Positions 3,650 to 52,700 of a stretch of 64,000 bases of DNA are shown here, piece by piece; position 1 is the stretch's first letter, and each line of letters opens with the position of its first letter. The stretch covers positions 2,651 to 66,650 of the forward strand of contig JBASUY010000020.1 of the NCBI GenBank assembly GCA_049275655.1, in the 5' to 3' direction. The DNA comes from Candidatus Omnitrophota bacterium. GTDB taxonomy: Bacteria; Omnitrophota; Gorgyraeia; Gygaellales; Profunditerraquicolaceae. The notes under the pieces are model-generated. The model was not told the DNA's origin. It ran no database searches and saw nothing but the letters and a program-made list of their open reading frames with translations. The position numbers and the translations under genes are program-made.

Positions 3650-5422
3650 TTATTCTAAAGAATATACTATCCCATCGCTCAAATTTATAATTTCTTGAAG
3701 ATTAAAAACAGAGCTGAGTTCTTCTATATTATATAAAAAATCCCTTGCTATATTTTTAAACCATACTAAATATATTTTCTCGTGAGTTAGTTTTAATTTT
3801 TCTTTAATTTCATACAAATTATCGCCTTTTGAAGCTGAAGAATCATGCTCATGCTTCTTGGGGCTAAGGTTAGATTTTTTTCCAGTATGAATATAAATGG
3901 CTTCTGGCACATTACTAGCTATTGCAGCGTCTAATTTATGCTCCTGCAACCATAATATAAGAGATGATTTTCTCCAGGCCTGAGTGCTATATTCAACAAT
4001 ACCGGATTGCCTTGAATGTATAACCCTGTAAATATTATAGGTAAGGGGATAGAACAAAGAAAAAATAAATATAGTATAAACAGTAAATCTTAGTATTTTC
4101 TTACTTACTTGTTGATAAGGCAATAAAATTAATAAATTTTCTATATTAACTAAGATTAAAAATATAGTAAAAATATATATTGGCGATAAGAGCCTAAGAT
4201 TTATCCTATCAAAAGCAAACCTTGCCCCAGAAATAATTAAAAAAATAGTGTAAACTAATAAAAAAATGCCTGCGGGTAATACTTGTCTTATTCTATTAAT
4301 CCCCTCCTCATTACTCTTTAAATAACGATAAAAAGTTAAAGTTATTATTAATAATATCAATAATCCAACAGTTATTCCTCTAATTAAAAAAGGCATATTA
4401 CTAGGTAAAAACCATAAAGTTAATGTATCAAAAGTATAATATATATTTTGCAATAAGGTAAAATCTGAAGGAAACCTAGTTCCAAAAAATGTTTGTGTTA
4501 GGATATAATTTCGTATAGGCCAAATAGAAAATATAGAAGTAGAGATAATACTAAAAATAATTCCATATTTTAATCTTTGCAAAAAAGAAGATTTTGGCAA
4601 CAATAAAAAAATAGAGATAAAACCTGAAATAATTAACGTAACACCTATATATCTTTGTAAACAAGAAAGCGCTGCTATAGCAGAGAGTAAAATTAATGTT
4701 GACCACCGCGCTTTGTTTATAAACTTATATAAACAAAAGATAAACAAATTTACAAGTAAGATAAATAACGGCTCTGACCAAGCCATATATGAAACTAAAA
4801 AAATAGGAATTGAGAATAAGACAGATATTGTTCCTAAAATTATTATTTCTTTTGTTTGGATAAACTTACGAAATAACTGCCCTGAAGTAAAAATAATCAA
4901 TCCAAAGATAATAACGTTAAGAAATCTGGCTCCATATAAAGGATCCATACCTGTTAATCCAATAGCAGCTAAAATAGTTGAAAATAGTGGCGGGAATACT
5001 ATTAAAGGATTTCCGGCCCAGTCAAGATACCCTTTGCCAAGGATTAAGTTTCTAGCTACGGAGATGTAAACTACTGAATCAGGACTAAGGCCTACTCCAT
5101 AACGCGACGTGCATATTAAAACTAATAGAACACCTATAAAACTTAATATTGTGATTATTAAATTTATATGCGTTTTTACTCTTATTAAAAAAAAGTAACC
5201 TAAAAGAAAAAAGAAAGAAGTAGCTAAGCTAAAGAATAAGGTAATTGGTTCTAAATGAACTATCCTGTCTTTATGAATTTCAATAAATAACCCGCTATTG
5301 ATAACATAGCTACAAAAATAGGAATAAATTGGCCATCCTAAAATCGCAAGGATTAATATAGTTAATATAAGTATTGGAAGGGTTTTATTTTTTTTAATCT
5401 TGGTTTTTATTTTACCTATCAT
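3650..5422 (-). CDS. GT-C fold membrane glycosyltransferase (ArnT/PMT-like, polyprenyl-phosphate-sugar dependent)
   Basis: 590 aa with about 12 predicted TM helices. First periplasmic loop motif DSVVYISVARN resembles the ArnT/PMT DxxxY..A.N motif. Soluble C-terminal domain. Confidence 0.5.
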   Translation of the reverse strand: MIGKIKTKIKKNKTLPILILTILILAILGWPIYSYFCSYVINSGLFIEIHKDRIVHLEPITLFFSLATSFFFLLGYFFLIRVKTHINLIITILSFIGVLLVLICTSRYGVGLSPDSVVYISVARNLILGKGYLDWAGNPLIVFPPLFSTILAAIGLTGMDPLYGARFLNVIIFGLIIFTSGQLFRKFIQTKEIIILGTISVLFSIPIFLVSYMAWSEPLFILLVNLFIFCLYKFINKARWSTLILLSAIAALSCLQRYIGVTLIISGFISIFLLLPKSSFLQRLKYGIIFSIISTSIFSIWPIRNYILTQTFFGTRFPSDFTLLQNIYYTFDTLTLWFLPSNMPFLIRGITVGLLILLIITLTFYRYLKSNEEGINRIRQVLPAGIFLLVYTIFLIISGARFAFDRINLRLLSPIYIFTIFLILVNIENLLILLPYQQVSKKILRFTVYTIFIFSLFYPLTYNIYRVIHSRQSGIVEYSTQAWRKSSLILWLQEHKLDAAIASNVPEAIYIHTGKKSNLSPKKHEHDSSASKGDNLYEIKEKLKLTHEKIYLVWFKNIARDFLYNIEELSSVFNLQEIINLSDGIVYSLE

Positions 5423-25646: not shown

Positions 25647-26045
25647 CTATTCCTTTTTGCCTTTTTTAAGATAATAATCTACGGTCTCTCCTACGATCAT
25701 TTTATGTTTTTTATCTACGGAGATAAACTCTAGGTGAGTATCGTAAATCATATCCCTCATTATCTCCTTTGATTCAACCACTCTTCCTATAACCATAATC
25801 GGATTAGGATCAAAAGGCAAGCGTATTTCAATTGCTAAGTTTGTTCCGGGAGAAAATGCCCTATTGGTAGTAAGAAGCATCCCCCCTAAGCTTATATTTT
25901 TAGTTTGAGTTAGATCTACATTGTCAATCTCATCAAGGATTCGGTAAGATACAATAAACCTGCCATAGGCGCGTGGGTGTTTTCTACGTTCTGTTCCCGA
26001 ATATTCCATAGCTACCTCCTTTAATTTGGGGAACTTTTCCCCCAT
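25647..26045 (-). CDS. PilZ domain protein (putative c-di-GMP receptor)
   Basis: RRKHPR (RxxxR) and NISLGG (D/NxSxGG) PilZ motifs. 132 aa. Confidence 0.6.
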   Translation of the reverse strand: MGEKFPKLKEVAMEYSGTERRKHPRAYGRFIVSYRILDEIDNVDLTQTKNISLGGMLLTTNRAFSPGTNLAIEIRLPFDPNPIMVIGRVVESKEIMRDMIYDTHLEFISVDKKHKMIVGETVDYYLKKGKKE

Positions 26046-26152: not shown

Positions 26153-27190
26153 CTACTCTTCTTTTTTGTTCCTTGTCATTAAATCCCTAACAGCTTTTAA
26201 GGCAGATTTATTCCTGTACAGAACGTTATAAACCTCCCTTACTATGGGCATATCAACTTTATATTTGAGGCTTAAGAGATAAGCAGATTTAGCAGTAGGT
26301 ATTCCTTCTGCTATGCCTGAATGTTTCTTTGTAGAAGAGCTTAAAGCCTTTAGTATCTTTACTAAAGGCTGCCCCTTGCCTAACTCCTCGCCTACAAACC
26401 TATTCCTGCTATGCGGGCTAAAACAGGTAGTTACTAAATCCCCTAATCCACTTATACCGCTAAAAGTATTTTGTTTAGCGCCCATGGCTTTGCCTAAACG
26501 AGAAATCTCCGCTAATCCCCTTGCTAATATAGCTGCTTTTGTATTTGCCCCAAATTTAAGCCCGTCAGATGCCCCACAGGCAATAGCAATAACATTTTTT
26601 AAACTCCCTCCTAATTCTACGCCTAAAATATCGTTATTAGTATATACCCTAAACCTTTCAGTTATGAATATATCCTGCACAAATTTCCTTAAGAGCTTGT
26701 CTTTAGAGGCTACTACTGCAACTGTTGGAATATTATTAGCAACCTCATAGGCTATGGTCGGGCCTGAAAGGACTGCAAGCTTTACCCTGCCTAACTCTTC
26801 TATTATAACCTCCGAAATTCTTTTTAATCCCTTAGCTTCAATACCCTTGACAACACTTAAATATACAGGTTTAGTTCTATTGAAGGCGATATCTTTTTTT
26901 ATTGCCCTTAAGATTCTACGGATATGCTCTGAGGGGGTTGCTAAGACTATTAAGTCTTTGTTTAAGATAGCATGGGATATCTTATCTGTAAGGATAATAC
27001 TTTTAGGTATTTTTATCCCCGGAAGAAACTTATGGTTTTCTCTCAATTGTTTTATCTTTAAGATATTATCACTAAAAGCCCCCCAAAGACTAACCGAATG
27101 CCCTTTTTTAGAAAGAAGAATAGCTAGGGTAGTCCCCCAACCGCCATCGCCAAGAATAGCTATTTTAATCTTTTTATTATTCAAATACAT
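26153..27190 (-). CDS. gpsA: NAD(P)H-dependent glycerol-3-phosphate dehydrogenase
   Basis: 345 aa. N-terminal IAILGDGGWGTTLA Rossmann motif with a GpsA-type C-terminal domain. Confidence 0.9.
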   Translation of the reverse strand: MYLNNKKIKIAILGDGGWGTTLAILLSKKGHSVSLWGAFSDNILKIKQLRENHKFLPGIKIPKSIILTDKISHAILNKDLIVLATPSEHIRRILRAIKKDIAFNRTKPVYLSVVKGIEAKGLKRISEVIIEELGRVKLAVLSGPTIAYEVANNIPTVAVVASKDKLLRKFVQDIFITERFRVYTNNDILGVELGGSLKNVIAIACGASDGLKFGANTKAAILARGLAEISRLGKAMGAKQNTFSGISGLGDLVTTCFSPHSRNRFVGEELGKGQPLVKILKALSSSTKKHSGIAEGIPTAKSAYLLSLKYKVDMPIVREVYNVLYRNKSALKAVRDLMTRNKKEE

Positions 27191-27539
27191 TCCTCCAGCT
27201 TTTTTCCTCCCGGGTAATAAATTTTATCCCCACATCAAAATTAAGGCCTCCTTTTGGCTCAATCCTTACTACTTTGCCTAACACTCCCTTTTGATATATA
27301 AGCGCTCTTTTTTCCAACTCTTCGCAGATCTCTAAAGTTTCGCGGTTAAAAGATAACCAAAGAATATCATCTTGATTAACCCGCTCTTTAATATTACAGA
27401 GCATCCCTGCCGAACTTATATTTGAGGTATAGCCTTCGAGAAGCTTAGATACAGTATCTTTATTGCATACTTTGTAAGCTAAAGGGGTTGCGTAATTTAT
27501 TCTTGGAAAAATCCGCCTTTCTGAAGAATTTATATCCAT
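27177..27539 (-). CDS. PilZ domain protein
   Basis: RRIFPR and NISSAG motifs. 120 aa. Confidence 0.6.
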   Translation of the reverse strand: MDINSSERRIFPRINYATPLAYKVCNKDTVSKLLEGYTSNISSAGMLCNIKERVNQDDILWLSFNRETLEICEELEKRALIYQKGVLGKVVRIEPKGGLNFDVGIKFITREEKSWRNVFE

Positions 27540-27540
27540 A

Positions 27541-28290
27541 TTATTTTATAGCTAAATTATTTTTATTTGTCCTTATCTTTGCTAAATCCCAAGCGTAATC
27601 ATATAAGTGTAATCCTTTACTTAGAGCAATAATTTCTCCGTCTTCAACGCCTATTTCTTCAGCCATATATTGCTTGACTAATTGAAGGCCACCTAAGTTA
27701 GAAGGGAAACCTCCCCATAAATCCCAAGAGCGAAAATAAAGTATGAAATGTAATTTTCCGTAACGTAGGCGCGTATCTATAATCCTTAGGCACGGAGGGT
27801 CAAGAAGCTTTATATCCGAAGGCATGCCTATCTCCATAGTTGCCTGGTTGGTTCCGGCGCCTTTTTCCCGGTAAAGTTTTATAACCTCCTCAATCTGGTT
27901 TACGCAAAGAGGCATCTCCCGGACCATCTCTTTGCCGTTTACATTCTCTTTAAACTTAACCTTAGGGTCAACCAACCTCTCTCCATAAGTATAATCTTCC
28001 GTATCTGTTTTAGTCCCGGTTAAAAGATAAGTTAAATAACCTTGGATATAATCCATATCTGTAGGAGCAGGAATTCCCATCCCTTCAGGAATTATAGGAA
28101 TGATTTGATGAGACGGTTTTTTAACTCTTATCGCCGCAAAATCAAATTCTAGCCTTTTCTGCCCTTCGTAACTTCCCTTAGTAATAGTGTAAACATGCCC
28201 ATGCTCTAAAATTTCGGATAGAGATTGAAACCAAGCATCATCAAGATCAAATGCATCAATAAAAATAGGTTTTAAAAGCTCTTCGGTCAT
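27541..28290 (-). CDS. Thymidylate synthase (ThyA) fold protein, divergent, short archaeal-like form
   Basis: 249 aa. LLDPPCLRIIDTRLRYGKLHFILYFRSWDLWGGFPSNLGG...GLHLYDYA aligns to the ThyA core ([38 protein letters not shown]...GDTHLYSNH). Catalytic Cys and the Asn of dUMP-type enzymes are retained. The His after Cys is replaced by Leu. Confidence 0.55.
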   Translation of the reverse strand: MTEELLKPIFIDAFDLDDAWFQSLSEILEHGHVYTITKGSYEGQKRLEFDFAAIRVKKPSHQIIPIIPEGMGIPAPTDMDYIQGYLTYLLTGTKTDTEDYTYGERLVDPKVKFKENVNGKEMVREMPLCVNQIEEVIKLYREKGAGTNQATMEIGMPSDIKLLDPPCLRIIDTRLRYGKLHFILYFRSWDLWGGFPSNLGGLQLVKQYMAEEIGVEDGEIIALSKGLHLYDYAWDLAKIRTNKNNLAIK

Positions 28291-28676
28291 TTTCTTCTAT
28301 TTTTTTCTTTTGCAGTTTTAACAAAAAGATTAAAGCTGCTAATTATCCGTGATATAGGCACATTTTTACCGATATAACCTGCGCTGCCGTATTCTTTAGA
28401 TTTAGATATAAGCTCTTCATCATATCCAAAGCCGGTAATCATAATTACAATAATTTCAGGCTTTAAATCTTTTATCTTTTTTAAGGCTTCTAAGCCGGTT
28501 ATCCCGGTAAGCTTAACATCCATAAGCACGGCATCAAAATCCTCTTTTTCTACGAGCTTTAACGACTCTTCTCCGGTTGCTACAGTCTTTACAGAGTACC
28601 CTTCTTTTTTAAACAAGTCTTCAAATAATTCCCTTACCGCTGATTCATCATCAACAACTAATATTTTATAAATCAT
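28287..28676 (-). CDS. Single-domain response regulator (CheY-like receiver)
   Basis: ILVVDDE...D(phospho-acceptor)...K motifs. Start placed at the internal MIYKILVVDD. Confidence 0.8.
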   Translation of the reverse strand: MIYKILVVDDESAVRELFEDLFKKEGYSVKTVATGEESLKLVEKEDFDAVLMDVKLTGITGLEALKKIKDLKPEIIVIMITGFGYDEELISKSKEYGSAGYIGKNVPISRIISSFNLFVKTAKEKNRRK

Positions 28677-30138
28677 TGCTATCTCCTTTTTTAACAAAAG
28701 GTAGCTTGATAATAAAAGTGGTTCCTTTACCCACTTGGCTTTCAACCGTTATAGAGCCACTGTGATTTTTGATTATATTATAACAGATAGAAAGCCCCAA
28801 ACCTGTCCCTTCTTTTTTTGAAGAATAAAAGGGCAGAAAAAGATTTTTTAAGGCAAGTGGGGGTATACCGCAACCAGTATCACTTATAAATATTAAGAGG
28901 TATTCGTTTGATTTATTAATAGTTTTAATAGTAAGCGTGCCCCCTTCTTTCATCGCCTGGTAAGCATTAATAAATAGGTTTACAAATACTTCCTGAAGTT
29001 GATGCGAATCTCCTCTAATTTTAAGGATATTTTTGGCAAAGACCTTATTTATTTTTATCTCATTTGAAGGCAATTTATGATAGCGTAAAAGAGGAAGGAC
29101 ATCCCTAATTATTTTATTTATATCTAGTTCTCTTGTAGTAGGAATTGACTTACGGGAAAAGGTCAGGAATCTATCTACAAGCCTTCTTATCTGATCTACC
29201 TGAAGGTTTATTGCTTTAAGGCCAGACCTTAATTCCTTATTTAAACCCTTAGTCTTTAATAAGATTTCCGTTCTACCGGATATAACAAAGGCAGGATTAT
29301 TAATTTCATGCGCTATTCCTGCTACTAATTGCCCCATTGCCGCAAGTTTTTCCGATTGAAATACCTGATACTCTAATTTTTTTCTTTCAGTAATATCTTT
29401 AGCCATAAATATATAGCCTGTCGTATCGCCTGCTGAATCAATAAATTTAGTTACGGTTAAACTTACTGGAAAAGATTGTCCATCCTTCTTAATAAAATAA
29501 GTCTCCAATTCATACCTACCGGTTTTCTTCACTTGTTCAAGCATAAAGTTCAATTTATAAGAGATATCATCATAAGAGTGTAGGGCTTTTATATGCTTAA
29601 AGATTATCTCGCTTCTCTTCCAGCCAAACATATCCTCTGCGCCCATGCCATAGTAAGTTATATTCCCGTCTAAATTAATAGTGTATAAGGCGTATTCTTT
29701 TATATTTAAGATGATATTTTTTAATGTCTGGTCAATATTATTCAAGGAAGCTTCTTTTTCCCTATGGGAAGTATTATCGTCGCCCATAAACAAAACGCCT
29801 TGGAGGTTTTTGTTTTTTGTTAAGATAGGGTTAATTCTCCAATAAATTAACCGATCCTCGCCTTTTTTATCGGGTATCAAAATCTCAAAACTACTAGGGC
29901 GTTTGTATTTTAAGGCGTCATTAAGCATGGCTTTAAAAATTTGTTCTCGACTCAAAGAGTTTCTTAACCTTTTATAGATTATACTAATACAATCAGAGCC
30001 CACAATTAAATCTTTTGACATACCAACAATATCCTCAAACTTTTTATTGCACATAAGAACTTCTCCTTTAGAATCACAATAAAAGATTAAGGAATTTGCT
30101 TTATCAATTGCATTATAAATTGTTTTTAAAAGGTTCAT
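28666..30138 (-). CDS. Cytoplasmic PAS-domain sensor histidine kinase
   Basis: 490 aa. Two PAS-like regions, H-box AHEINNP, and an HATPase_c domain with G boxes (DTGCGIP, GTGLGLS). No TM helices. Confidence 0.85.
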   Translation of the reverse strand: MNLLKTIYNAIDKANSLIFYCDSKGEVLMCNKKFEDIVGMSKDLIVGSDCISIIYKRLRNSLSREQIFKAMLNDALKYKRPSSFEILIPDKKGEDRLIYWRINPILTKNKNLQGVLFMGDDNTSHREKEASLNNIDQTLKNIILNIKEYALYTINLDGNITYYGMGAEDMFGWKRSEIIFKHIKALHSYDDISYKLNFMLEQVKKTGRYELETYFIKKDGQSFPVSLTVTKFIDSAGDTTGYIFMAKDITERKKLEYQVFQSEKLAAMGQLVAGIAHEINNPAFVISGRTEILLKTKGLNKELRSGLKAINLQVDQIRRLVDRFLTFSRKSIPTTRELDINKIIRDVLPLLRYHKLPSNEIKINKVFAKNILKIRGDSHQLQEVFVNLFINAYQAMKEGGTLTIKTINKSNEYLLIFISDTGCGIPPLALKNLFLPFYSSKKEGTGLGLSICYNIIKNHSGSITVESQVGKGTTFIIKLPFVKKGDSNDL

Positions 30139-32417: not shown

Positions 32418-33194
32418 TTATTTCTGTTCATCTTTAACCTTTAATTTAAAAATCTCTCTTGCCTTCAGAAACAGCCCTTTTTGGTCTAAGGCGTTATAAA
32501 ACTTACTCTCATAAACCAAAGAGATATCTTTCCTCTCCTCAGATACTATGATAATTAAAGCATCCGTCTCCTCGCTTAAACCTAAGGCTGCACGGTGCCT
32601 AGTGCCAAATATACGGTTTAAATCCTGAGATTGTGCTAAAGGGAAAAAGCAACCAGCACTTAGAATCCGTCCGTTTTGAACAATGATTCCTCCGTCGTGA
32701 ATAGGATTATTAGGGGTAAATATTGCTTGGATCAGCTCCGAGGATACCCTTGAGTCAATCATAACTCCGCTTTGGGCAAAAGCATTAAGGGGATCACTTT
32801 TTTCTATGGCTATTAAAGCCCCTATTTTTTCACGCGCTAAAGATTCCACTGCTATGCTTATTTCTTTTAACATATAATCTAACTCTTCGTCGCGAAGTTG
32901 CGCCGTAAAAATATGCCTCTGCCCAAGCCGCGCAAGGCCCCTTCTTATCTCCGGGTGAAATATGATAAGAACCGCAATAACGGAAGTAGCAAAAAAGTTC
33001 TTAAATATCCAATCCAACCTAGTAAGCCCCAGCCTTTGAAATACAAAGAAAGAGACTAAGACAATCGCTATTCCCCGGACAACTTGAATAGCACGTGTTC
33101 CTTCAAAGAAGAGTATTATCTGGTAAATTACAAACCAAAGAATCGCTATCTCAAGTAATGTTTTCCAATGGACAAAAGCTACTGATATGCTCAT
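32418..33194 (-). CDS. cdaA: Diadenylate cyclase (membrane-anchored CdaA type)
   Basis: N-terminal TM helices plus a DAC domain (DGA..I, GTRHRAALG motifs). Confidence 0.85.
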   Translation of the reverse strand: MSISVAFVHWKTLLEIAILWFVIYQIILFFEGTRAIQVVRGIAIVLVSFFVFQRLGLTRLDWIFKNFFATSVIAVLIIFHPEIRRGLARLGQRHIFTAQLRDEELDYMLKEISIAVESLAREKIGALIAIEKSDPLNAFAQSGVMIDSRVSSELIQAIFTPNNPIHDGGIIVQNGRILSAGCFFPLAQSQDLNRIFGTRHRAALGLSEETDALIIIVSEERKDISLVYESKFYNALDQKGLFLKAREIFKLKVKDEQK

Positions 33195-34381
33195 GATATT
33201 AAACTATCAACTACTTTTAAGGCTTCCTTTGTTTCCTTAACATTGTGTACCCTAAAAATAGCCGCTCCGTTCATTCTTGCAACCGCACAAGAAGCAATTG
33301 TCCCAAATAGCCTTCTATTTGGTTTAACCTTTAATATACGCCCAATAAAAGACTTTCTTGAAAGGCCTATCATTATCGGCATACCTAAGCCTTTAAACTC
33401 TGAAAGCCTCTTGATTATTTCAAGGTTATGAGGCAATGTTTTACCAAAACCAATCCCAGGATCAATAATAATCCTATTTGGCGCTATGCCGTGTTGCAAG
33501 GCCTTGGATACCGCTAAACTTAAATAAGAATACAGGTCATCCATCAAAGAAGCATAAACAGGGTTTTTCTGCATTACCCTCGGGTTTTTAAGCATATGCA
33601 TAATTATAATGCCGGATTTATATTTTGCCGCTACCTTTGCCATCTTATGGTCCCTTAATCCTGAGATATCATTAACAATGCTTGCTCCGTTCTCTAAGGC
33701 AATCTTTGCTATCTGCGGCTTATAGGTATCAATAGATATGGGGATTTTAATTTTTTTACTTAAAGCCTTTATTATTGGGATTACCCGCTCCTCTTCTTCT
33801 TTTAAGCTTATCCTTCTTGCCCCCGGGCGCGTAGATTCTCCGCCAATATCAATAATGTCTGCTCCGTCCTTCGCTAAACTCAAAGCGTATTCTACTATTC
33901 TTTCTTTTTTTAAGCCAAGCAAGCCGTCACCACTAAAAGAATCCTCTGTAATATTTACTATGCCCATTATGCAAGAACGCTTCCCCAAATTAAGCGTATG
34001 TTTGCCGGCTACAAAACAAAAGGCCTCCTTATCATTGTTGCTTAAGGCAGAGTCTAATTCCTTAGCAATTGATTGCAAGTTAAATGACTGCTTATTAAGT
34101 TTTGCTATCAAGCGATTGTAATGAGAGTGATTCCCCATAAGAAGGCAATCAGTCTTCTTTATTCTACCGGTAATAATATCTTTTGCTAAAGCTGCCTCTG
34201 CCCCTAAAGAGAGCATCTGCTGCTTGATGATATTTGCCTGAATAGCGCTAAGGCCTTTAATCTTAACTAAAGAATGTTGCGCCTTAGGAAGCATGAGTTT
34301 TATTCCATTAGGGTCAACCCCTATATCATTCATAGCCTTAAATAATTCTTTAGCTTTAAATAGATTTAAAACTCTCATCAT
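33191..34381 (-). CDS. folP: Dihydropteroate synthase with ~115-aa N-terminal extension
   Basis: The C-terminal ~280 aa is a pterin-binding DHPS (GIVNITEDSFSGDG, DIGGESTRPG). The N-terminal extension has no recognisable motif. Confidence 0.8.
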   Translation of the reverse strand: MMRVLNLFKAKELFKAMNDIGVDPNGIKLMLPKAQHSLVKIKGLSAIQANIIKQQMLSLGAEAALAKDIITGRIKKTDCLLMGNHSHYNRLIAKLNKQSFNLQSIAKELDSALSNNDKEAFCFVAGKHTLNLGKRSCIMGIVNITEDSFSGDGLLGLKKERIVEYALSLAKDGADIIDIGGESTRPGARRISLKEEEERVIPIIKALSKKIKIPISIDTYKPQIAKIALENGASIVNDISGLRDHKMAKVAAKYKSGIIIMHMLKNPRVMQKNPVYASLMDDLYSYLSLAVSKALQHGIAPNRIIIDPGIGFGKTLPHNLEIIKRLSEFKGLGMPIMIGLSRKSFIGRILKVKPNRRLFGTIASCAVARMNGAAIFRVHNVKETKEALKVVDSLIS

Positions 34382-37847: not shown

Positions 37848-38636
37848 TTACCGCCTCCTGTATGCTTCCAAAAACTTATCGCAATAAATATGCTTATTTA
37901 AGATTAAATCAGTAGTTATCGCCATATCCATCAACTCGCTGTCTAAAGGGTCAAGTATCGCTGCGTCTAAACCAAAGGCCATAGCCATGGCTAAAAAGGT
38001 ACGGTTAATTATTGGCCTGTTTAATGCGCCCTGAGAAACATTACTTAATCCTATTATAGTATTAGGGGCTGGGTCTGCAATTAATTTAAACTCTCTTATA
38101 GATTCTAATATATCCTTTTCTTGCCCTTGCGCTATATTAACCGGCATAACTATCGGGTCAAGATATAATTCATCCGTAGAAAAATTATTTTCAATACAAT
38201 AAGAGACTATCTGCGCTGCTAATTCTAAACGCTGGTCTTTAGTTTGAGGTATTCCGTCTGCGCTTATGGTCAGGGCTATTAACTTAGCTTTGTTTTCCTT
38301 AGCCAAAGGCACTAATTGGTTAAGTTTATCTAAATCCGCTGTAGTAGAATTTATGATTGCGTTTTCTTTAACCAGTTTAAGCGCTTCTTTAATTACCTCT
38401 ACCTTGCTTGAATCAATGCAAATAGCCTTATCAGTAACTTCTTGAATAGTTTTAATTAGCCAAAGGGTATCTTTAATTGGGTCTTTTGAGGCAGGACCAC
38501 AATTTACATCTAATGCGTCTGCTCCGGCTTTAATCTGATTTAAAGCAGAGTCCTGAATAACTTGCTTATCTTTTTCGGCTACAGCCTTGCCTATCTTCCC
38601 GTACATCCCGTTGATTAACTCTCCGATAATAAGCAT
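37848..38636 (-). CDS. acsE: Methyltetrahydrofolate:corrinoid iron-sulfur protein methyltransferase (pterin-binding, AcsE/MeTr)
   Basis: 262 aa. MLIIGELINGM...NCGP...INSTT...GLSNVSQG...NRTFLAMAMAFGLDAAI is collinear with the Moorella AcsE pattern. Confidence 0.8.
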   Translation of the reverse strand: MLIIGELINGMYGKIGKAVAEKDKQVIQDSALNQIKAGADALDVNCGPASKDPIKDTLWLIKTIQEVTDKAICIDSSKVEVIKEALKLVKENAIINSTTADLDKLNQLVPLAKENKAKLIALTISADGIPQTKDQRLELAAQIVSYCIENNFSTDELYLDPIVMPVNIAQGQEKDILESIREFKLIADPAPNTIIGLSNVSQGALNRPIINRTFLAMAMAFGLDAAILDPLDSELMDMAITTDLILNKHIYCDKFLEAYRRR

Positions 38637-38660
38637 CCTTGATCTCCCTTTAAAAGACTC

Positions 38661-39596
38661 TTAAGAAAAGAGGCTATCTATATACCTTTCGATTTCTTTT
38701 ACTGCCGTAGGATGGCGCATTACTAATAGATTAGCTCCTGCCTGCACTAAAGCAAGGACAGTTAGAATCTCCCAGATTATCCCTTGCCTTACATCCTCTG
38801 CTTTTGCCTCTTTAGCCCTCCAAGCCTCTTGCCCTGCCAAACAAAGAAAAGGGCTAAAAAGTGTTTTATCTCCTGACAGAGCAGCTAAACGCGCCCTCTC
38901 CATAATAGAATAAGCATATTCTAAGCCATACCCTAAAGCGCCTATAGTAGGGTCAATAACTATCCTCTCTAAAGGCATCCCCATATCTGAAATTAGGATA
39001 TTAAGTTGTTTAGCGATATTAATATCAATAGGTGATTCTGCGATAAGGCTATGGCCTCCTGCCAATGCGCCTGCTGTTACTGCCTTATAGTTATTTTGGG
39101 TTGCGTTACCGATTAAACACCGCTCATTTTTTGCTGCCTCGCTACAGGCAGGCAAAAGGATATTATCCTTTTCATCATCTCCGCAGCCGAGAATAATCAA
39201 AGGCAAATCAAATTTGCGTAAAAAATCTTTAACAAGGTTAGCTTCCTCTGAAGGAGATTTATCTTCAAACTCAGGATGCGCGCCTTTTAGCCTTAGGCAG
39301 ATAATCTTAGCATTATATTCTTTAATACATTTATCTGCCCACAAAAAAGGATCAGATAAAACATCGCCAAAAGCTTTGGTTAATTCTTCCGGCCAATCTT
39401 TAGGATAAGTATCCCATACTTCAAAGATAGGGTATGGTTTATTAGGGATAACACCCTCTTTAAAAAGCAAAGGCAAAGAACGCTCCCCTCCTATCTTAAC
39501 CTTAAAAGCGCGGCTGCCCCCTTCTTCTTTGGTTGCTCCGATAGTTATCTCCGAGACAGATCCACTCCATTTTTCATGCATTAATTGAATCGCCAT
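38661..39596 (-). CDS. acsD: Corrinoid iron-sulfur protein small subunit (AcsD / CFeSP delta)
   Basis: 311 aa. LGNATQNNYK, SPIDINIAKQLNIL, VIDPTIGALGYGLEYAYSIMER and WRAKEA match AcsD closely. Confidence 0.8.
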   Translation of the reverse strand: MAIQLMHEKWSGSVSEITIGATKEEGGSRAFKVKIGGERSLPLLFKEGVIPNKPYPIFEVWDTYPKDWPEELTKAFGDVLSDPFLWADKCIKEYNAKIICLRLKGAHPEFEDKSPSEEANLVKDFLRKFDLPLIILGCGDDEKDNILLPACSEAAKNERCLIGNATQNNYKAVTAGALAGGHSLIAESPIDINIAKQLNILISDMGMPLERIVIDPTIGALGYGLEYAYSIMERARLAALSGDKTLFSPFLCLAGQEAWRAKEAKAEDVRQGIIWEILTVLALVQAGANLLVMRHPTAVKEIERYIDSLFS

Positions 39597-39638
39597 ACAA
39601 CTCCTCTAAACTTCATTTTAGCAATAAATTTATCTTAA

Positions 39639-41231
39639 TCAATTGTTTTTTATGCTGGGGAATCTGCCTAAATCCGTATGAGGAAAAAATAATGCCGCCA
39701 TGTATTCATTCATATATTCCGCGTCAGTAGAAAGGTCAAAATAAGTTATCTGGCGCGCTAATTCTTCTGCTCTCTTTAGCTTTTCAGCCGATAGTAGCAC
39801 TTCTTTGGCCCCGGCTAAAGCGCTATTACCTAAAAAAGAAAAAATACTTCTGTCGGCATCCGGTAAAAGCCCTATGGCTATAGCGCTATCAATATCCAAA
39901 GATGTTCCAAACCCTCCTGAAATAAAAATATTCTCTAAATCAGTTACCTTAAAATTCATATGCTTTAGGAGTATGGATGCGGCAGAGTAAATAGCTGCCT
40001 TAGCGCGTTTTAAATTATCTAAATCCGCTTCGCTGACCGTTATCTCTTCTTTTGTCAATGAATCTTCTTTAAAACAGACTATAAATTCCTTGCCAAAGTC
40101 AGAATTCCTTATTCTCTTATCCTCTTTAATAATCTTACCCCCCTTATCAATTATTCCGCAAGCAAGCATGTTGCGCAAGAGGCTTATGTATCCTGACCCG
40201 CAAATTCCTAATGGTTGCGCTCCCCCAATAACTTTATAATCAATAGATAAGTTTTTTGGGTCTATCGTTACCTTTTCTATTGCCCCCGGCAATGCGCGCA
40301 TTCCATTTTTTAATCCGCTACCCTCAAAAGCAGGCCCTGCAGAAGCAGCAGAGGAAACAATAAACTCTTCATTGCCTAAAGCTATCTCTCCATTAGTCCC
40401 TATATCTATAAGCATACTAATCCCCTTTTTCATATAAAGCCCGCTGGATAGTATCCCGGCGACAGTATCCCCTCCTACATAGCTGGCTACTGCCGGGATA
40501 GAATAAATAACCCCGGAAGGGTTAATATCTATGCCTATCTCTTTAGCCTTTAAAGAAGGAAGGTTATCTTTAAGAGGGTCAAAAGAGTCCCTACGTATAT
40601 AGGCAGGATTCTTTTTAAGTAGAAGATGAATCATTGTAGTATTCCCTGCACAAACCATAAAATCAACATCTTTAATATTCACCTTATTCTCTAAGGCCAA
40701 GGCTCGTATTAATTGATTAATAGTAAAAACAACTGCCCTTTGAAGCTTATCTAAGCCATCGCTTCCTGTAGCGTATATTATGCGCGTGATTATATCCGCA
40801 CCAAAAGAAGCCTGCCTATTATAACTTGTTTTAACCCCTAAAGAGCTCTTTTCATTAATATTGATTATTTCAGCTGAAATTGTAGTCGTCCCTATATCTA
40901 CGGCAAGCCCAAAATCTCCTGAAATATAGGTAGCACTCTCTTGGTTATCAGATAATTGAAAAAGATTATTTTCTAATTGCGGGCTATCTAACCTAGACTC
41001 TAAAGGAATATCCACATCTAAGTTGCTGTTTATAGTAGCCTGACATGCCAAGCAACTCTTCTTCCCTGAAGTTTTTCTTATAAATACCCTACATTTCCCA
41101 CACAATCCATCTCCTGCGCAAATTGAGTTAATATATATGCCGCCTGATAAAGCAGCGGAGAGTATCGTTGTCCCCTCTAAAACCTCAACGCTTTTATTAT
41201 AAGGATAAAATGTCACTTTATATTTTTTCAT
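39639..41231 (-). CDS. Corrinoid activation/regeneration protein (RACo-like): N-terminal 2Fe-2S ferredoxin + ASKHA ATPase
   Basis: 530 aa. N-terminal plant-type ferredoxin cysteines (CAGDGLCGKCRV...C), C-terminal ASKHA-fold glycine-rich segments, and conserved genomic placement between acsD and acsC. Confidence 0.65.
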   Translation of the reverse strand: MKKYKVTFYPYNKSVEVLEGTTILSAALSGGIYINSICAGDGLCGKCRVFIRKTSGKKSCLACQATINSNLDVDIPLESRLDSPQLENNLFQLSDNQESATYISGDFGLAVDIGTTTISAEIININEKSSLGVKTSYNRQASFGADIITRIIYATGSDGLDKLQRAVVFTINQLIRALALENKVNIKDVDFMVCAGNTTMIHLLLKKNPAYIRRDSFDPLKDNLPSLKAKEIGIDINPSGVIYSIPAVASYVGGDTVAGILSSGLYMKKGISMLIDIGTNGEIALGNEEFIVSSAASAGPAFEGSGLKNGMRALPGAIEKVTIDPKNLSIDYKVIGGAQPLGICGSGYISLLRNMLACGIIDKGGKIIKEDKRIRNSDFGKEFIVCFKEDSLTKEEITVSEADLDNLKRAKAAIYSAASILLKHMNFKVTDLENIFISGGFGTSLDIDSAIAIGLLPDADRSIFSFLGNSALAGAKEVLLSAEKLKRAEELARQITYFDLSTDAEYMNEYMAALFFPHTDLGRFPSIKNN

Positions 41232-41255
41232 TATATATTATGTATATGGGTATAT

Positions 41256-42584
41256 TTACAGATTTTTAAGAAAAGAAGGTATGCCTGCAGCTTCTTTTGG
41301 CCCTACGGTTATATTAAAACCTGAAGCTTCCTTTAAATCTCCACTCATCACAGAGACATAGCCGGGAATAATCAAGCAGTTATGCGAGATTAATCCCCTT
41401 ACTTTATATTTTTCAAGAGAATCAGCTATTCTCTTAGGGGTAAATTTTTCTGCTGCCCAGGCAGTTAATACGGACATCCCTTCGGTATCAATGCTTACGA
41501 TATACGAAGGGACTTTACTTGCCTCAACTTCTCCTAAGACCGTAAAATAAGAAAGAGAAAAGTTTGTGGTAACTAACACCGGAGACTTATTACTAACAGC
41601 GCCTACAGAATAAACCTTGGGCTCTATCTGTAATGGTTTTTGCGGGTCGGTATAAATATTTTGACGCAAGGTAAGCAGAGGCAATACTTCAAATACGCTA
41701 AAATTACTGATTAATACGATGCTGGCATACTTTGTAATATAAGTAGCTGCCTCCATTGCTTCCTCATAAGGCGATTTTGCCGAAACTATTACTAAAAAAG
41801 GAAATCCTAAAGAGCGTTGATTTTTTTTAAGCGCAAGCCTTCTGGCTTGGGTTAAATTCCATATATTATCAGAGATGGAGCTTCCCTTAATCTCTAATAC
41901 TATATCCTTATACCCAGACTTATTAAGCTCTCCGGCTAAGCCTGATAAGGTATCTAAGGAATCTGCAGAAACCACCAAAGAGGCTTCTATATCCTTAATT
42001 GCTTTTGCTATCGCAATTAAATCTTCTTTTCCATTATAATAGACTAACGGTTTTTTATCTTTTAAATAAGCTAAAGACCCTTCAAGGGCTTTTAAATCTT
42101 TAAAGATTATTCCTATGGCAAGTTGCGTTATATCCGAAACCAACCTGACTACCTCAATAAACCTTTGAGCGCCTCCTTTTTGCTCTACAACTATGATATT
42201 GGCTTTTAGGGTTTGGCCGACGCGCTCAAATCCCAAGGCATTTATTTTATCAACCCTGTCCTTTATTTCGTTATCCGTCAAGGAGTCCTCTAAAATAAAA
42301 CCTAAAGCACAGGGATTATGGAACTTCTCTTCGTGGCGAAAAAGAACAGTCTCCCCTCCTACTTTAAAGCTGTAATCTTTATTTTTAAGGATGATTGTTT
42401 TTATAGGCGGCTCTGATTGAGATTCAATTATATCCTTAGATTCCTTGCTTACATAAGGGCATTTATCTATAGTCGTTGACTTTTTAACTAATTGCATGGC
42501 AAAGGCAAGGCAAGTAGCAAAGCCGCATTCACGACAGTTAGTCTTTGGTAGAAGTTTATAAATATCCAAGCCTGATAAAGCCAT
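41256..42584 (-). CDS. acsC: Corrinoid iron-sulfur protein large subunit (AcsC / CFeSP gamma)
   Basis: 442 aa. N-terminal 4Fe-4S motif CRECGFATCLAFA...C with a TIM-barrel and a C-terminal B12-binding-like region. Confidence 0.8.
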   Translation of the reverse strand: MALSGLDIYKLLPKTNCRECGFATCLAFAMQLVKKSTTIDKCPYVSKESKDIIESQSEPPIKTIILKNKDYSFKVGGETVLFRHEEKFHNPCALGFILEDSLTDNEIKDRVDKINALGFERVGQTLKANIIVVEQKGGAQRFIEVVRLVSDITQLAIGIIFKDLKALEGSLAYLKDKKPLVYYNGKEDLIAIAKAIKDIEASLVVSADSLDTLSGLAGELNKSGYKDIVLEIKGSSISDNIWNLTQARRLALKKNQRSLGFPFLVIVSAKSPYEEAMEAATYITKYASIVLISNFSVFEVLPLLTLRQNIYTDPQKPLQIEPKVYSVGAVSNKSPVLVTTNFSLSYFTVLGEVEASKVPSYIVSIDTEGMSVLTAWAAEKFTPKRIADSLEKYKVRGLISHNCLIIPGYVSVMSGDLKEASGFNITVGPKEAAGIPSFLKNL

Positions 42585-42937: not shown

Positions 42938-43441
42938 TTATTTTTCTATTTTACCCGAAGCAACCCAAGAATCAATTGCCTTCCTCTCAAACTTCCATTC
43001 ATCCCCTTCTTTATGTCCGGGGACTCTCCCGGCATTAGCCCATTCCATAATGGAATTTAAATCAACCTCAAGATATCTGGCAAGCTCATTGGCATTAAGA
43101 AAATCATGAAGCATAGAGCATCTACCTTCAAAAACCGCTCCTTCTGCTATATTTAATTTTACCGGATATATATCCCCTTCAAGTACGGCCGAAGGCAAAA
43201 GAGTGAGCCTCTCTTTAGCAGTAACCTTACCTTTTACTTTCCCACCTATAATAATATTATCCCCTATAATATTTGCATTAACAAAAGCTGTTTGCCCTAT
43301 AGTTAGATTCCCCTTTGCCTCAAGGTTACCCTCAAAATTTCCGTTAATCCTTAAATTAACCGGGTCTTTAAAGCTTAAAGTGCCCTGCATGGAGGCATCA
43401 ACATCTAAAACCTTTAGTTCTGCTTTTTTCTTAAAAGCCAT
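42938..43441 (-). CDS. Bactofilin-domain protein fused to C-terminal excisionase-type HTH
   Basis: 167 aa. Residues ~20-110 are a bactofilin beta-helical repeat (LTIGQTAFVNANIIGDNIIIGGKVKGKV...). The C-terminus LARYLEVDLNSIMEWANAGRVPGHKEGDEWKFER is an HTH_17. Confidence 0.65.
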   Translation of the reverse strand: MAFKKKAELKVLDVDASMQGTLSFKDPVNLRINGNFEGNLEAKGNLTIGQTAFVNANIIGDNIIIGGKVKGKVTAKERLTLLPSAVLEGDIYPVKLNIAEGAVFEGRCSMLHDFLNANELARYLEVDLNSIMEWANAGRVPGHKEGDEWKFERKAIDSWVASGKIEK

Positions 43442-49776: not shown

Positions 49777-52700
49777 ATGATTAAAGAAACTAACAAAAAA
49801 CCAAAGTATCTTCTTAATAAAGAGGGCGCATTTGTAATTAAAAATTATAATTTCTCTAAGCCCTTCTCTAGTTTTTTACCCGGGATAGCCGGTAGATACG
49901 GCATACCTATGTGGGCCTTCTATGTAAACCGCGCTCAATGTATTTCAAGCTTTGGGATAAAAGATAAAGACCACGCGATACTAGAGTTCTTCCCCGCTAA
50001 TAAGGCATGGCAATCTGTTTCTACGCACGGGTTCAGGACTTTCTTAAAAGTCAGTAAAAATAATAAGGACTTTTTTTATGAGCCCTTCCATAACGGATTT
50101 ACGAATCTTTCTTATAAAATAACAAATAGGATATATATCCTGCCTTATGAATTAACTATTGAAGAAGAGAACAAAACCTTAAATCTTGTTACCAGAATTA
50201 AATATTTTAATATCCCCAATGACAACTACGCCGGATTAGCTAGGATAGTAGAACTAAAAAACCTGAATAAAAACTTAATAAAAATAGAGCTCCTTGACGG
50301 GCTGCCTCAAATTGTCCCTTATGGAACTAATAACTATTGCCTTAAAAAAATGTCGCGCACGATTGAGGCGTGGATGGGGGTTGAAAACCTTAAGAATAAC
50401 GCCCCCTTTTATAGGCTTACAGTTGACCCTGCTGACCGGCCAGAGATAGTCCACATAAAAGAAGGCAACTTTTATTTAGGTTTTAGTTCTGAAGCCAAAA
50501 AAACAAAGCTAATCAAACCTATCATTAATCCGGATAATATATTCGGCCCGATTACTGATTTTTCTTGCCCAAGGTTATTCTTAAGCAAAGATTTTTCTCC
50601 CCCGCAAAATGAAACTATACAAAGTAAAACCCCTTCTGCTTTTATATACTCTTCTTTTAGCCTAAAGCAAAATGAAAATAAAAAGCTCTACGCTCTAAGC
50701 GGCTATATGCGTAGCCTAAAAGACCTTAACAACTCCTTAAAGAGGCTCTCTTCTCCTGCCTACATTGAATCTAAAAGAATTGAAAATATGAAATTAATAA
50801 ATAGCTTACTTGAAAATGTCAGGACAAACTCATCTTCAAGAGAGTTTAACCTCTATTCTCAACAGACTTACTTAGATAATATATTACGCGGCGGGTATCC
50901 GGTTATGTTTGCGCAAAACAAGCCTTTCTATCTTTATTCGCGCAAGCACGGCGATCCTGAAAGAGATTACAATAAGTTTCAAATTTCTCCAACATACCTC
51001 TCCCAAGGCAATGGCAATTACCGGGACTTAAACCAAAACCGCAGGAACGAAGTTTGGTTTAATCCTAAGATAAAAGAAAAAGACTTACTCTCGTTATTTA
51101 ATCTTATCCAACTCGACGGATTTAACCCTTTAGTGACAAAGGGTACGCGTTTTATCTTACAGGATGCGCAAAAGATACGAACAAAACTCGCTCAATTTAC
51201 TAAAAAAGAAAACGTAGATAAAATCCTTCTTGCCTTTACAGGAAAAAGGTTTTCTCCTGGTGAGATAATTCATTTTATTGAAGATAATCAAATAAAACTA
51301 ACCTCTTCTTATGATGAGTTGTTAGATATTATTGTCTCTTGTTCCTTAGAGATAAATGAAGCAGAACATTTAGAAGGTTTTTGGATTGACCATTGGCATT
51401 ATAATTTAGACCTTCTTGATAGCTACCTTGCTATTTACCCGGAAAAAGCAAAAGAGATATTCTTTGAAAAAAGGGAATTTACCTTCTTTGATAATGACAG
51501 AGTAGTAAAACCAAGGAAAGAAAAATATATTCTTCATAATGGCCTCCCGCGTCAACTACATGCAGTTACTATAGACCTTAATAAAAAAGAGATCCTAAGC
51601 AAAAGGAAAACTGCTCCTAATATAGCGCGCACAGAGGGCGGTTTTGGGGATATTTATCAAACAACCCTCATAAATAAGCTTCTATGCCTCTTGGTTAATA
51701 AGTATGCCTCCCTTGACTCTTTTGGCGTAGGAGTTGAGATGGAATCAGATAAGCCTAATTGGTTTGATTCTTTAAATGGGCTACCTGCTATATTCGGCTC
51801 TTCCCTCTCAGAGACCTTTGAGCTAAAACGATTAGCGCTCTATATCAAAAACTCTATAAATTTAACCCCTACAGAAGGTATCTTCGTTACGGAAGAGATT
51901 TACAGGCTTTTAGAAAAATTATACGTTTTAACTAAAGAATATTTTAATAAGACACTAAGTGACTTTCAATGGTGGGATGAGACGCATTTAGCGAAAGAGT
52001 CTTATTGGTCAGATACAAAAATGGGAGTTAAGGGAAAAGAGTTAAATATACCTTCAAAGGACTTAAGCCAGATCGTTAATTTATTTATAAAGAAAATTGA
52101 TATAGGCATAGATAAGGCTTGGGATAAAAAATCCTCTGTATATAGAGGTTATTTTTTCCATGAAGTTACCAAATACGAAAGGCTAAAAGATAATTTCATA
52201 AAACCTCTATCTTTTAAGCAGATTACCTTGCCCTTATTCCTTGAGCCGCAGATGCATGGCTTACGCCTTGCAGAAAACCAAGCTAAAGCTAAAGCCCTAT
52301 ATAAAGGGGTAAAAAGAAGCGCTCTCTTTGATAAAAAACTATCTATGTATAAAGTAACTGCTTCGCTTAAACCTATGCCTGAGGAGATTGGTAGATGCAG
52401 GGTATTCCCTTCCGGCTGGCTTGAGAATGAATCTGTATGGCTACATATGGAGTATAAGTATCTCCTTGAATTACTAAAACAAGGGCTTTATGAAGAGTTT
52501 TACCAGGATTTTAAAAAAGCCCTTATACCTTTTCAGGACCCAAAAAGATACGGGCGAAGCATCCTTGAAAACTCTTCTTTCCTTGTAAGTAGCGCTTTCC
52601 CTGATAAAACTTTACATGGAAATGGGTTTGTTGCCCGGCTATCCGGCTCTACAGCAGAATTTTTAGATATCTGGCTTAAGATTAACCTTGGGATAAAACC

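Follow-up and report, generated by a model that had tools for sequence, protein, structure and literature searches.

We describe a gene for a short, divergent relative of thymidylate synthase (ThyA) at positions 27541 to 28290 of a 64-kb stretch of DNA from a Candidatus Omnitrophota bacterium (hereafter the window, to which all coordinates refer). The gene is strongly conserved and genuine, and the archaeal-like protein that it encodes belongs, judged by sequence comparison, to a distinct and uncharacterised sister clade of the archaeal short ThyA type. On the simplest interpretation, this protein would be the thymidylate synthase of an Omnitrophota lineage (class Koll11 of the Genome Taxonomy Database, GTDB), built on a shortened archaeal-like ThyA fold. 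At slightly better than even confidence, we favor a thymidylate synthase of a new short-type clade that is specific for deoxyuridine monophosphate (dUMP), uses methylene-tetrahydrofolate, and has a rebuilt phosphate and cofactor site.

Few enzymes are as well studied as thymidylate synthase, which is also a major drug target, and the textbook enzyme needs its C-terminal lid for folate binding and hydride transfer. The clade described here, with thousands of sequences in one bacterial class, in DPANN archaea and on hundreds of uncultured viral contigs, has retained its nucleophile and the residues that read the base but has lost the inter-subunit phosphate arginines, the tryptophan loop and the C-terminal lid. 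If its members are true thymidylate synthases, they represent a second route to the phosphate and cofactor sites on the ThyA fold and bear on the cosubstrate question of archaeal-type ThyA; if they are hydroxymethylases, they imply modified DNA in a cellular lineage. Neither the superfamily nor the archaeal short type is novel, and sequences of the clade already stand in databases as “thymidylate synthase”; it is the description of the clade that is new to the literature searched. No paper was found there that links Omnitrophota with thymidylate synthase or thyX, or that reports the clade, its N-Q/DPPCLR/RSWD signature, its spread in Omnitrophota, DPANN archaea and uncultured phages, or a sequence-network description of it.

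A conserved gene for a short ThyA relative

The gene lies on the minus strand as a single open reading frame (ORF) with an ATG start and encodes 249 amino acids, in agreement with the short length given by the original prediction, which had been made from the DNA letters alone. That prediction had also proposed a ThyA catalytic core with the nucleophilic cysteine, the dUMP-specifying asparagine and a C-terminal HLY region, and all three were recovered in the translation and by profile alignment with hhalign as C167 in D164-P-P-C167-L168-R169, N198 at the end of YFRSWDLWGGFPSN198, and H228 and Y230 in G-L-H228-L-Y230. It had further noted leucine in place of the conserved histidine after the cysteine and had allowed for a sequencing error, in which case a canonical ThyA with histidine should have been the best match. 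Instead, leucine is the family norm and the best curated match is the methanogen-type family TIGR03283. PPCL is found in 229/270 retrieved homologues, the remaining variants being mostly non-polar too (V, C, M, F, A), and 13 independent contigs encode the identical 249-aa protein, which excludes a sequencing error and makes the leucine a family trait. The replacement is real but not distinctive, as methanogen-type ThyA also has P-C-L.

Fold and family placement

Pfam family PF00303 matched residues 128-241 only (E=6.6e-9; 35.7 bits against a gathering score of 24.3), and sequence matches in the PDB were canonical ThyA proteins at about 1e-6, again confined to the C-terminal half, which bears out the predicted N-terminus unlike that of bacterial ThyA. 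The protein has the ThyA alpha/beta fold: an AlphaFold2 (AF2) model from a 66-sequence alignment reached pLDDT 96.3 and pTM 0.91, and Foldseek against the PDB returned hundreds of ThyA chains (E about 3e-13, TM 0.65-0.72, 15-19% identity), with no archaeal-type ThyA structure seen among these matches.

The nearest curated family is the methanogen-type thymidylate synthase TIGR03283 (96.4 bits against a cut-off of 174.55), so the suggested resemblance to archaeal or methanogen-type ThyA or a pyrimidine-modifying relative was well placed. On the same model, four genuine methanogen-type sequences scored 190-236 bits and six diverse clade members 87-110 bits, and this gap argues for a separate sister clade. 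Alignment of the two groups with hhalign ran over the full length (residues 11-238; probability 99.9%, E 9.5e-33, 28% identity). The focal protein scored 29.5 bits on TIGR03284 (cut-off 108.35) and 24.6-33 bits on NF002495-9 (cut-offs 325-405). A homologue search seeded with the methanogen-type protein of Methanobacterium virus PhiF1 found 9 proteins only. In a crude neighbor-joining tree rooted on the methanogen type, 25/25 sampled Omnitrophota sequences were monophyletic, and their nearest neighbors were metagenomic and IMG/VR sequences at 61-70% identity.

With methanogen-type ThyA (such as MJ0757 of M. jannaschii and ORF59 of PhiF1), the clade shares full-length homology, short length, the N-terminal strand and D-A-W helix, the Y-T-Y-G-E/D-R motif, P-C-L and an acidic residue at the position of E. 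coli L143, and both are without the IWDEW loop and the C-terminal folate lid. Among the tested motifs, only P-C-L is common to them: the methanogen type has D-E-R-G (R21), (S/T)-R-R (R126/R127), P-C-L-I and R-S-H-D, whereas the clade has K-G-S with a 4-aa insert and R46, T-N-Q, P-P-C-L-R and R-S-W-D, so that the residue two positions past the cysteine is R169 in the clade and isoleucine in the methanogen type. Canonical ThyA (PF00303, TIGR03284; E. coli, L. casei, human) has the same fold, nucleophile, tyrosine base and equivalents of R166, S167, D169, N177, H207 and Y209, but it is only 15-19% identical and aligns in sequence over the C-terminal half only. Relative to it, the focal protein has N-Q for R126'/R127', D for L143, L for H147, F for Q165 and W for C168, and the loop and the C-terminus of about 40 residues are gone.

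A clade-specific active site

Residues were equated with those of E. coli and L. casei ThyA by hhalign and HMM alignments. All features listed here are on the minus strand, in protein order:

28153-28176, minus: G39-S40-Y-E-G-Q-K-R46, R21-loop equivalent with a 4-residue insert (register as given by the alignment)
27976-27993, minus: Y100-T-Y102-G-E-R105; Y102 equals E. coli Y94, which helps remove the C5 proton (hhalign)
27907-27975, minus: variable insertion, residues 106-128, predicted beta-hairpin (AF2 strands E110-117/E120-127), absent in some members (gaps in alignment A2)
27844-27849, minus: N148-Q149, at the position of R126'/R127', the phosphate-binding arginines from the partner subunit in canonical ThyA (hhalign)
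27784-27801, minus: D164-P-P-C167-L168-R169; C167 equals the nucleophile C146, D164 equals L143, L168 equals H147 and R169 equals A148 (E. coli)
27697-27738, minus: Y-F-R187-S188-W189-D190-L-W-G-G-F-P-S-N198; R187 equals R166, S188 equals S167, D190 equals D169 and N198 equals N177, with F186 and W189 for Q165 and C168
27601-27615, minus: G226-L-H228-L-Y230; H228 equals H207 and Y230 equals Y209 (contacts to the deoxyribose 3'-OH), with G226 for D205

Conservation was counted over 150 clade representatives (about 137 of them aligned at Y100 and Y102). The nucleophile C167 is present in 147/150, followed by L168 in 130/150 and R169 in 128/150; N148 and Q149 are found in 138/150 and 126/150, viral members being alike, Y100 and Y102 in 134 of about 137, and D164 is invariant in alignment A2. 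Invariant or near-invariant positions comprise G39, S40, R46, Y85, E98, Y100, T101, Y102, N148 and Q149 in the N-terminal part and D164-R169 (DPPCLR), F186, R187, S188, W189, D190, P196, N198, G226, H228 and Y230 in the C-terminal part, and the motifs of the clade include DAWFQ, GS..R46, YTYG, N148-Q149, DPPCLR and YFRSWD...N198. The catalytic cysteine and the dUMP-contact set (equivalents of Y94, R166, S167, D169, N177, H207 and Y209) are thus all present and invariant or nearly so, among them D190 for the pterin-binding aspartate D169 and N198 for the uracil-specifying asparagine N177. The phosphate-binding arginine pair R126'/R127' of canonical ThyA is replaced by N148-Q149. At the position of R21, where K38 stands, conservation is only partial (many viral members have R/K), while R46 is a clade-specific invariant arginine. 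Of 12 residues within 6 A of dUMP C5, 5 differ from ThyA in the residue mapping, and W80 is without a counterpart.

Taken from the alignments, the changes that appear to define the clade are R126'/R127' to N148/Q149, L143 to D164, the new R46 and R169, Q165 to F186, C168 to W189, and the absence of both the W80/W83 loop and the C-terminal tail. In the mechanism that we propose, Cys167 would add to C6 of dUMP, whose base and sugar would be held by N198, D190, S188, R187, H228 and Y230. The resulting C5 carbanion would attack the iminium form of 5,10-methylene-tetrahydrofolate, Y102 would assist removal of the C5 proton, and the exocyclic methylene would be reduced to a methyl group to give deoxythymidine monophosphate (dTMP). 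With Asn148-Gln149 in place of the partner-subunit arginines, R46 and R169, together with K38, may have taken over and rebuilt the phosphate pocket. More speculatively, the clade-specific W189 might stand in for W80.

Diagnostic positions have been described for this superfamily by Lee et al. (PMC13326640; E. coli numbering): at N177, asparagine indicates dUMP and aspartate deoxycytidine monophosphate (dCMP); at L143, a bulky hydrophobic residue goes with a methyl product and Asp/Glu with a hydroxymethyl product (T4 gp42, MilA); and D169N marks a flavin- and O2-dependent 5-hydroxy-dCMP synthase. The focal protein has Asn/Asp/Asp at N177/L143/D169. A dCMP or CMP hydroxymethylase is therefore excluded by Asn198, where aspartate would be expected, and Asp190 and Asn198 likewise exclude a flavin-dependent 5-hydroxy-dCMP synthase, since the enzymes of this type in T-even-like phages (PDB 9iqc; RB69 gp48, DLP3 gp80) combine N177D with D169N and use O2 and flavin (PMC13326640). 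The focal protein also comes from an organism with a partial Wood-Ljungdahl module, which suggests an anaerobe. For short-type enzymes, the L143 rule appears unable to discriminate methyl from hydroxymethyl products, because this position is occupied by E, D or H in methanogen-type ThyA as well.

A further relative is the SPO1-type dUMP hydroxymethylase, of which the homologue gp29 of Bacillus phage vB_BsuM-Goe9 is about 31% identical over residues 102-230. Both proteins have aspartate three residues before the cysteine, asparagine at N177, aspartate at D169, the motif Y-G-E-R-L-R and a residue other than histidine after the cysteine (D-R-P-C-N in gp29). Unlike the focal protein, gp29 has the Glu58 helix (L-A-E-S-L-W), P-R-G (R21), T-R-Q (R126) and a C-terminal extension of about 150 residues, and it sits in a phage hypermodification context.

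Distribution and genomic contexts of the clade

Our searches retrieved 6466 homologues, of which the top 120 are 82-89% identical (closest: 249-aa); where a source name is given among these, it is “thymidylate synthase [Candidatus Omnitrophota]”, with the sole exception of P0107 (“Deltaproteobacteria bacterium”). HMMER, run exhaustively against 1.84 billion cluster representatives, found 1201 clusters at E<=1e-3 and 171 at E<=1e-30. In species-representative genomes, a locus search with a 14-sequence alignment, based on the clade motif YFRSWDLW, gave at least 599 confirmed matches, and the best 80 of these were examined as loci. At 74-91% identity, all 80 are apparently metagenome-assembled or single-amplified genomes (MAGs/SAGs) of Omnitrophota by sequence identity, though about 15 are titled otherwise (uncultured Planctomycetales/Planctomycetia, Elusimicrobia, Clostridia, Deltaproteobacteria, “bacterium”). 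Carriers fall into four orders, all in GTDB class Koll11, when their names are cross-referenced with the genome table of PMC10066038: Gygaellales/GIF10 (UBA6253 [GCA_002441245.1], RBG_13_41_10; UBA1562 and UBA12090 lineages; Gygaella), DTHP01, Gorgyraeales/UBA10183 and JABMQH01. The commonest gene order among the 80 Omnitrophota loci is tilS-ftsH-folP-dacA-pdxJ-acpS-nnrD-[histidine kinase-response regulator, optional]-X-PilZ-gpsA-PilZ-hom-thrC, with the ThyA-like gene at X, and thus a housekeeping array; in 20 of the 80, no shared synteny was detectable.

Named clade members also occur in MAGs of Thermodesulfobacteriota and Nanoarchaeota, so that DPANN archaea are included. In the Nanoarchaeota loci (L175-L177), the ThyA-like gene divergently adjoins a thymidylate kinase gene (tmk) near gyrB and gyrA, and on an archaeal contig of a lineage unrelated to this case (L091) it lies immediately upstream of tmk; two bacterial contexts beyond Omnitrophota are unremarkable housekeeping regions. 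The Nanoarchaeota gyrB near this pair (13169-16345 in L175-L177) carries an intein (PF14890). Inteins with LAGLIDADG homing endonucleases also interrupt three of the clade homologues checked (P0131, P0195, P0241); the Hint domain of P0195 begins exactly at the catalytic P-P-C site, and P0241 has two intein-like insertions.

Aspartate at the position of N198 was found in 4/150 representatives. The clade member P0239 (locus L090:67-1335), which is fused to a thymidine kinase (PF00265; NF003296 198.6 bits), has this aspartate together with His at Y102 and Ile at R169 and is, by these residues, probably a cytosine-specific variant.

Relatives with the identical signature, at 43-59% identity, are encoded on 232 IMG/VR viral contigs, of which 80 (L093-L172) were examined for gene context. 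They lie in replication modules, with a family B DNA polymerase in 30/80 loci and also primase, DnaB, RecA, clamp and PD-(D/E)XK nuclease genes, and the ThyA-like gene adjoins a thymidylate kinase gene in L166 and a dUTPase gene in L119. ThyX, dihydrofolate reductase (DHFR) and canonical ThyA were not found within +-6 kb in these 80 loci, and no close viral relative was found in BFVD. Other genes that recur nearby encode a QueE-like radical SAM protein (19/80), Cpn10 (17/80), ribosomal protein S21 (12/80) and DnaJ (8/80).

Nine viral loci (L095, L096, L098, L100, L124, L125, L151, L163 and L165) have family 4 glycosyltransferase (GT4) genes within two genes of the ThyA-like gene, on both sides except in L100, and in most of them a PD-(D/E)XK nuclease gene stands just upstream. 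The GT4 flanks hint at hypermodification in those phages, and such loci could be thymine or hydroxymethyluracil hypermodification clusters. Two viral loci, L093 (3799-4551 and 5281-5991) and L094, carry tandem paralogues, one with Asn198/N-Q/Y102 and a second with Asp198/N-R/Pro102, an arrangement that recalls T4 with td and gene 42.

Folate metabolism and other thymidylate synthases

Two features of the window bear on cofactor supply:

33191-34381, minus: folP (dihydropteroate synthase; PF00809, 270 bits), also in the syntenic array of relatives
37848-42584, minus: Wood-Ljungdahl corrinoid module (PF00809/PF03599, PF14574/PF17651, PF04060)

The module encodes a methyl-pterin:corrinoid methyltransferase-like protein (Pterin_bind + CdhD), the small and large subunits of the corrinoid iron-sulfur protein (CFeSP) and the corrinoid activator RACo, and this partial Wood-Ljungdahl module suggests an acetogenic or C1-folate lifestyle of this Omnitrophota bacterium. 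Its folP indicates that the organism makes a folate-type pterin, in line with tetrahydrofolate synthesis being encoded in more than 75% of Omnitrophota genomes (PMC10066038), and together with the C1-pterin module it indicates that the cell would be able to supply methylene-tetrahydrofolate.

Pfam annotation of the ORFs of the 64-kb window, a handful of which were identified via syntenic relatives only, found no ThyX, canonical ThyA or DHFR. Used as tblastn queries, T. maritima ThyX and E. coli FolA likewise had no match in the loci and window (1.35 Mb of near-gene DNA) or in the viral loci (0.88 Mb of near-gene DNA). With E. coli Dut and Tmk as queries, the viral loci yielded a single dUTPase gene and two genes for tmk; Dut, Tmk and Dcd gave nothing near the gene in Omnitrophota loci and elsewhere only the archaeal tmk of L091.

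Source data of PMC10066038 hold KEGG orthology (KO) lists for three Omnitrophota genomes (58, 231 and 221, the third incomplete but past the two KOs concerned), and K00560 (ThyA) is in none of them. The ThyX-bearing genomes among these (ID 58, GCA_023819605.1, order B26-G9; ID 231, GCA_023819315.1, order 4484-171) belong to orders outside the four carrier orders, a separation that, in a tiny sample of two genomes, agrees with the either/or pattern that is usual for thymidylate synthases. Genes of the clade are automatically annotated as “thymidylate synthase” though the seven tested members reach no curated NCBIfam cut-off; pathway reconstructions may for this reason mis-score dTMP synthesis, and KO-based ones may not recognise the clade, the absence of K00560 from the three lists being an example.

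Weighing the possible activities

A dUMP-specific, methylating enzyme is suggested by the retained catalytic and dUMP-contact residues together with asparagine at N177 and the folate-type aspartate at D169, and it is supported by the methanogen-type thymidylate synthases as nearest curated family and by the mostly housekeeping setting of the best 80 Omnitrophota loci. A role in thymidine-nucleotide synthesis is further indicated by the tmk and dUTPase neighbors, the replication-module setting and the inteins, which are typical of replication and nucleotide-metabolism genes. Several observations weigh against a thymidylate synthase. The IWDEW loop (I79-W83, with W80 and W83) has no counterpart, and the last ~40 residues that make up the C-terminal folate lid are missing, the protein ending near E. 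coli residue ~225; when canonical ThyA is truncated at its C-terminus, it no longer forms dTMP, though partial reactions survive. Among relatives that have been characterised, the nearest are M. jannaschii MJ0757 and the enzyme of M. thermautotrophicus, and neither is known to catalyse more than partial reactions. Glu58 has no confident alignment partner; in its region (helix 79-91), the helix-end register (helix B) gives the invariant Y85, and MAFFT pairs the helix with ThyA helix C. No matching NCBIfam thymidylate synthase model reached its cut-off for the focal protein, nor did the protein match the PROSITE PS00091-type ThyA signature, for which a regular expression matched E. coli ThyA and 0/270 homologues. 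GT4 genes flank 9/78 of the Asn198-type viral genes. The two Omnitrophota genomes whose KO lists are complete both have K03465 (ThyX), and K00287 (DHFR) is in none of the three lists (PMC10066038), and D164 puts an acidic residue, the correlate of a hydroxymethyl product, at the L143 position (PMC13326640).

These points feed into different alternatives. The protein could be a dUMP 5-hydroxymethylase (5-hydroxymethyl-dUMP synthase), which would share the Cys-C6 chemistry and methylene-folate but have water, not hydride, quench the methylene. Modified thymine derivatives in DNA would then be built from its product, which is certainly plausible in the case of some phage members and conceivable for the bacterium. 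We regard a dUMP hydroxymethylase as unlikely, albeit with much in its favor: Asp/Asn/Asp at L143/N177/D169 is the triplet of the Goe9 homologue of SPO1 gp29, SPO1-like gp29 is among the best phage tblastn matches, the acidic L143 residue is the published correlate (PMC13326640), the missing W80 loop and C-terminal lid are what shields the ThyA intermediate from water, nine viral members have GT4 and PD-(D/E)XK nuclease genes beside them, and some Omnitrophota genomes have ThyX. Yet methanogen-type ThyA, which is not known to be accompanied by any other thymidylate synthase candidate in its archaeal hosts, shares the acidic L143 residue and the missing lid, and the rule may therefore fail for short-type enzymes. 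Both genomes with ThyX come from non-carrier orders, and the Omnitrophota gene stands in a housekeeping array. Near it, no hydroxymethyl-dUMP kinase, DNA-modification module or glycosyltransferase was found in the Omnitrophota loci with listed gene families, the wider Omnitrophota survey having covered the window's own neighbors and dut, tmk and dcd. We also know of no 5-hydroxymethyluracil in the genomic DNA of bacteria. Rather improbable, too, is that the protein is not the cell's thymidylate synthase at all and instead co-exists with ThyX in Omnitrophota as a dUMP 5-hydroxymethylase or other C5-modifier. If a co-existing hydroxymethylase proved true, this lineage and many environmental phages would make 5-hydroxymethyluracil-type DNA bases, and among bacterial lineages it would be the first to have a base of this kind as part of its housekeeping.

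Also unlikely, and somewhat more so than a dUMP hydroxymethylase, is a C5-modifying enzyme of the ThyA fold that acts on a uracil nucleotide with another phosphate form, on another such nucleotide, or with a non-canonical C1 donor or reductant. The exchange of R126'/R127' for N-Q, the semi-conserved R21 position, the new invariant R46 and R169 and the altered surroundings of dUMP C5, with 5/12 residues different and no W80, would all suit it, as would the absence of K00287 from the KO lists and the unsettled cosubstrate of methanogen-type ThyA, ThyA biochemistry in methanogens being poorly known (PMC9012536). Our literature search on the biochemistry of MJ0757 and archaeal ThyA found no paper. 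Against a non-canonical partner, the pterin-binding aspartate is kept as D190 and is not the asparagine of flavin hydroxylases, H228 and Y230 still read the deoxyribose, dUTPase and thymidylate kinase neighbors fit dUMP in and dTMP out, and genes for folate synthesis and C1-folate metabolism are present. A ThyA remnant that is decaying or catalytically inactive, or a P-C-L that arose as a sequencing or assembly artefact, is exceedingly improbable: low scores against canonical models are all that speaks for it, and it is effectively refuted by the invariant catalytic residues, PPCL in most homologues, the confident structure model, the identical proteins on 13 contigs and 74-91% identity across the best 80 of the at least 599 species-genome loci.

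Signalling neighbors and other features of the window

The GC content of the window is about 38%, and almost all of its genes are on one strand. Neighbors of the ThyA-like gene were identified from Pfam labels on identical or near-identical contigs:

28666-30138, minus: PAS histidine kinase, a lineage-specific neighbor
28287-28676, minus: CheY-like receiver gene, whose stop codon overlaps the ATG of the ThyA-like gene (ATGA); a neighbor and not part of the enzyme system
27177-27539, minus: small PilZ-domain gene that begins 1 nt past the stop of the ThyA-like gene; a common neighbor with no evident functional link
26153-27190: gpsA
25647-26045: second PilZ gene

The overlap with the receiver stop and the 1-nt gap to the PilZ gene place the ThyA-like gene within a tightly packed string of co-directional genes. 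All flanking genes are as the original prediction described when it placed the enzyme inside a signalling cluster, but this context is not conserved: among the 80 Omnitrophota loci surveyed, the receiver lies directly upstream in 20/72 and the kinase upstream in 8/55, compared with PilZ downstream in 39/76 and gpsA in 36/70. The signalling neighbors are thus physically real but lineage-specific, and because of this we take the signalling context to be incidental and reject a functional coupling of the ThyA-like gene to histidine kinase, receiver or PilZ, no such link being indicated. Stand-alone small PilZ genes are interleaved with gpsA, hom and thrC, and their copy number varies from 2 to 3 among relatives (window, L005, L007).

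Three large ORFs of the window are without a Pfam match at E<=1e-5: 49777-52995 (plus strand, 1072 aa), which is the sole long plus-strand gene, 53027-55798 (minus strand, 923 aa) and 3650-5422 (minus strand, 590 aa). In a 167-aa protein encoded at 42938-43441 (minus strand), a bactofilin domain is followed by an HTH_17 DNA-binding domain at the C-terminus, an unusual pairing.

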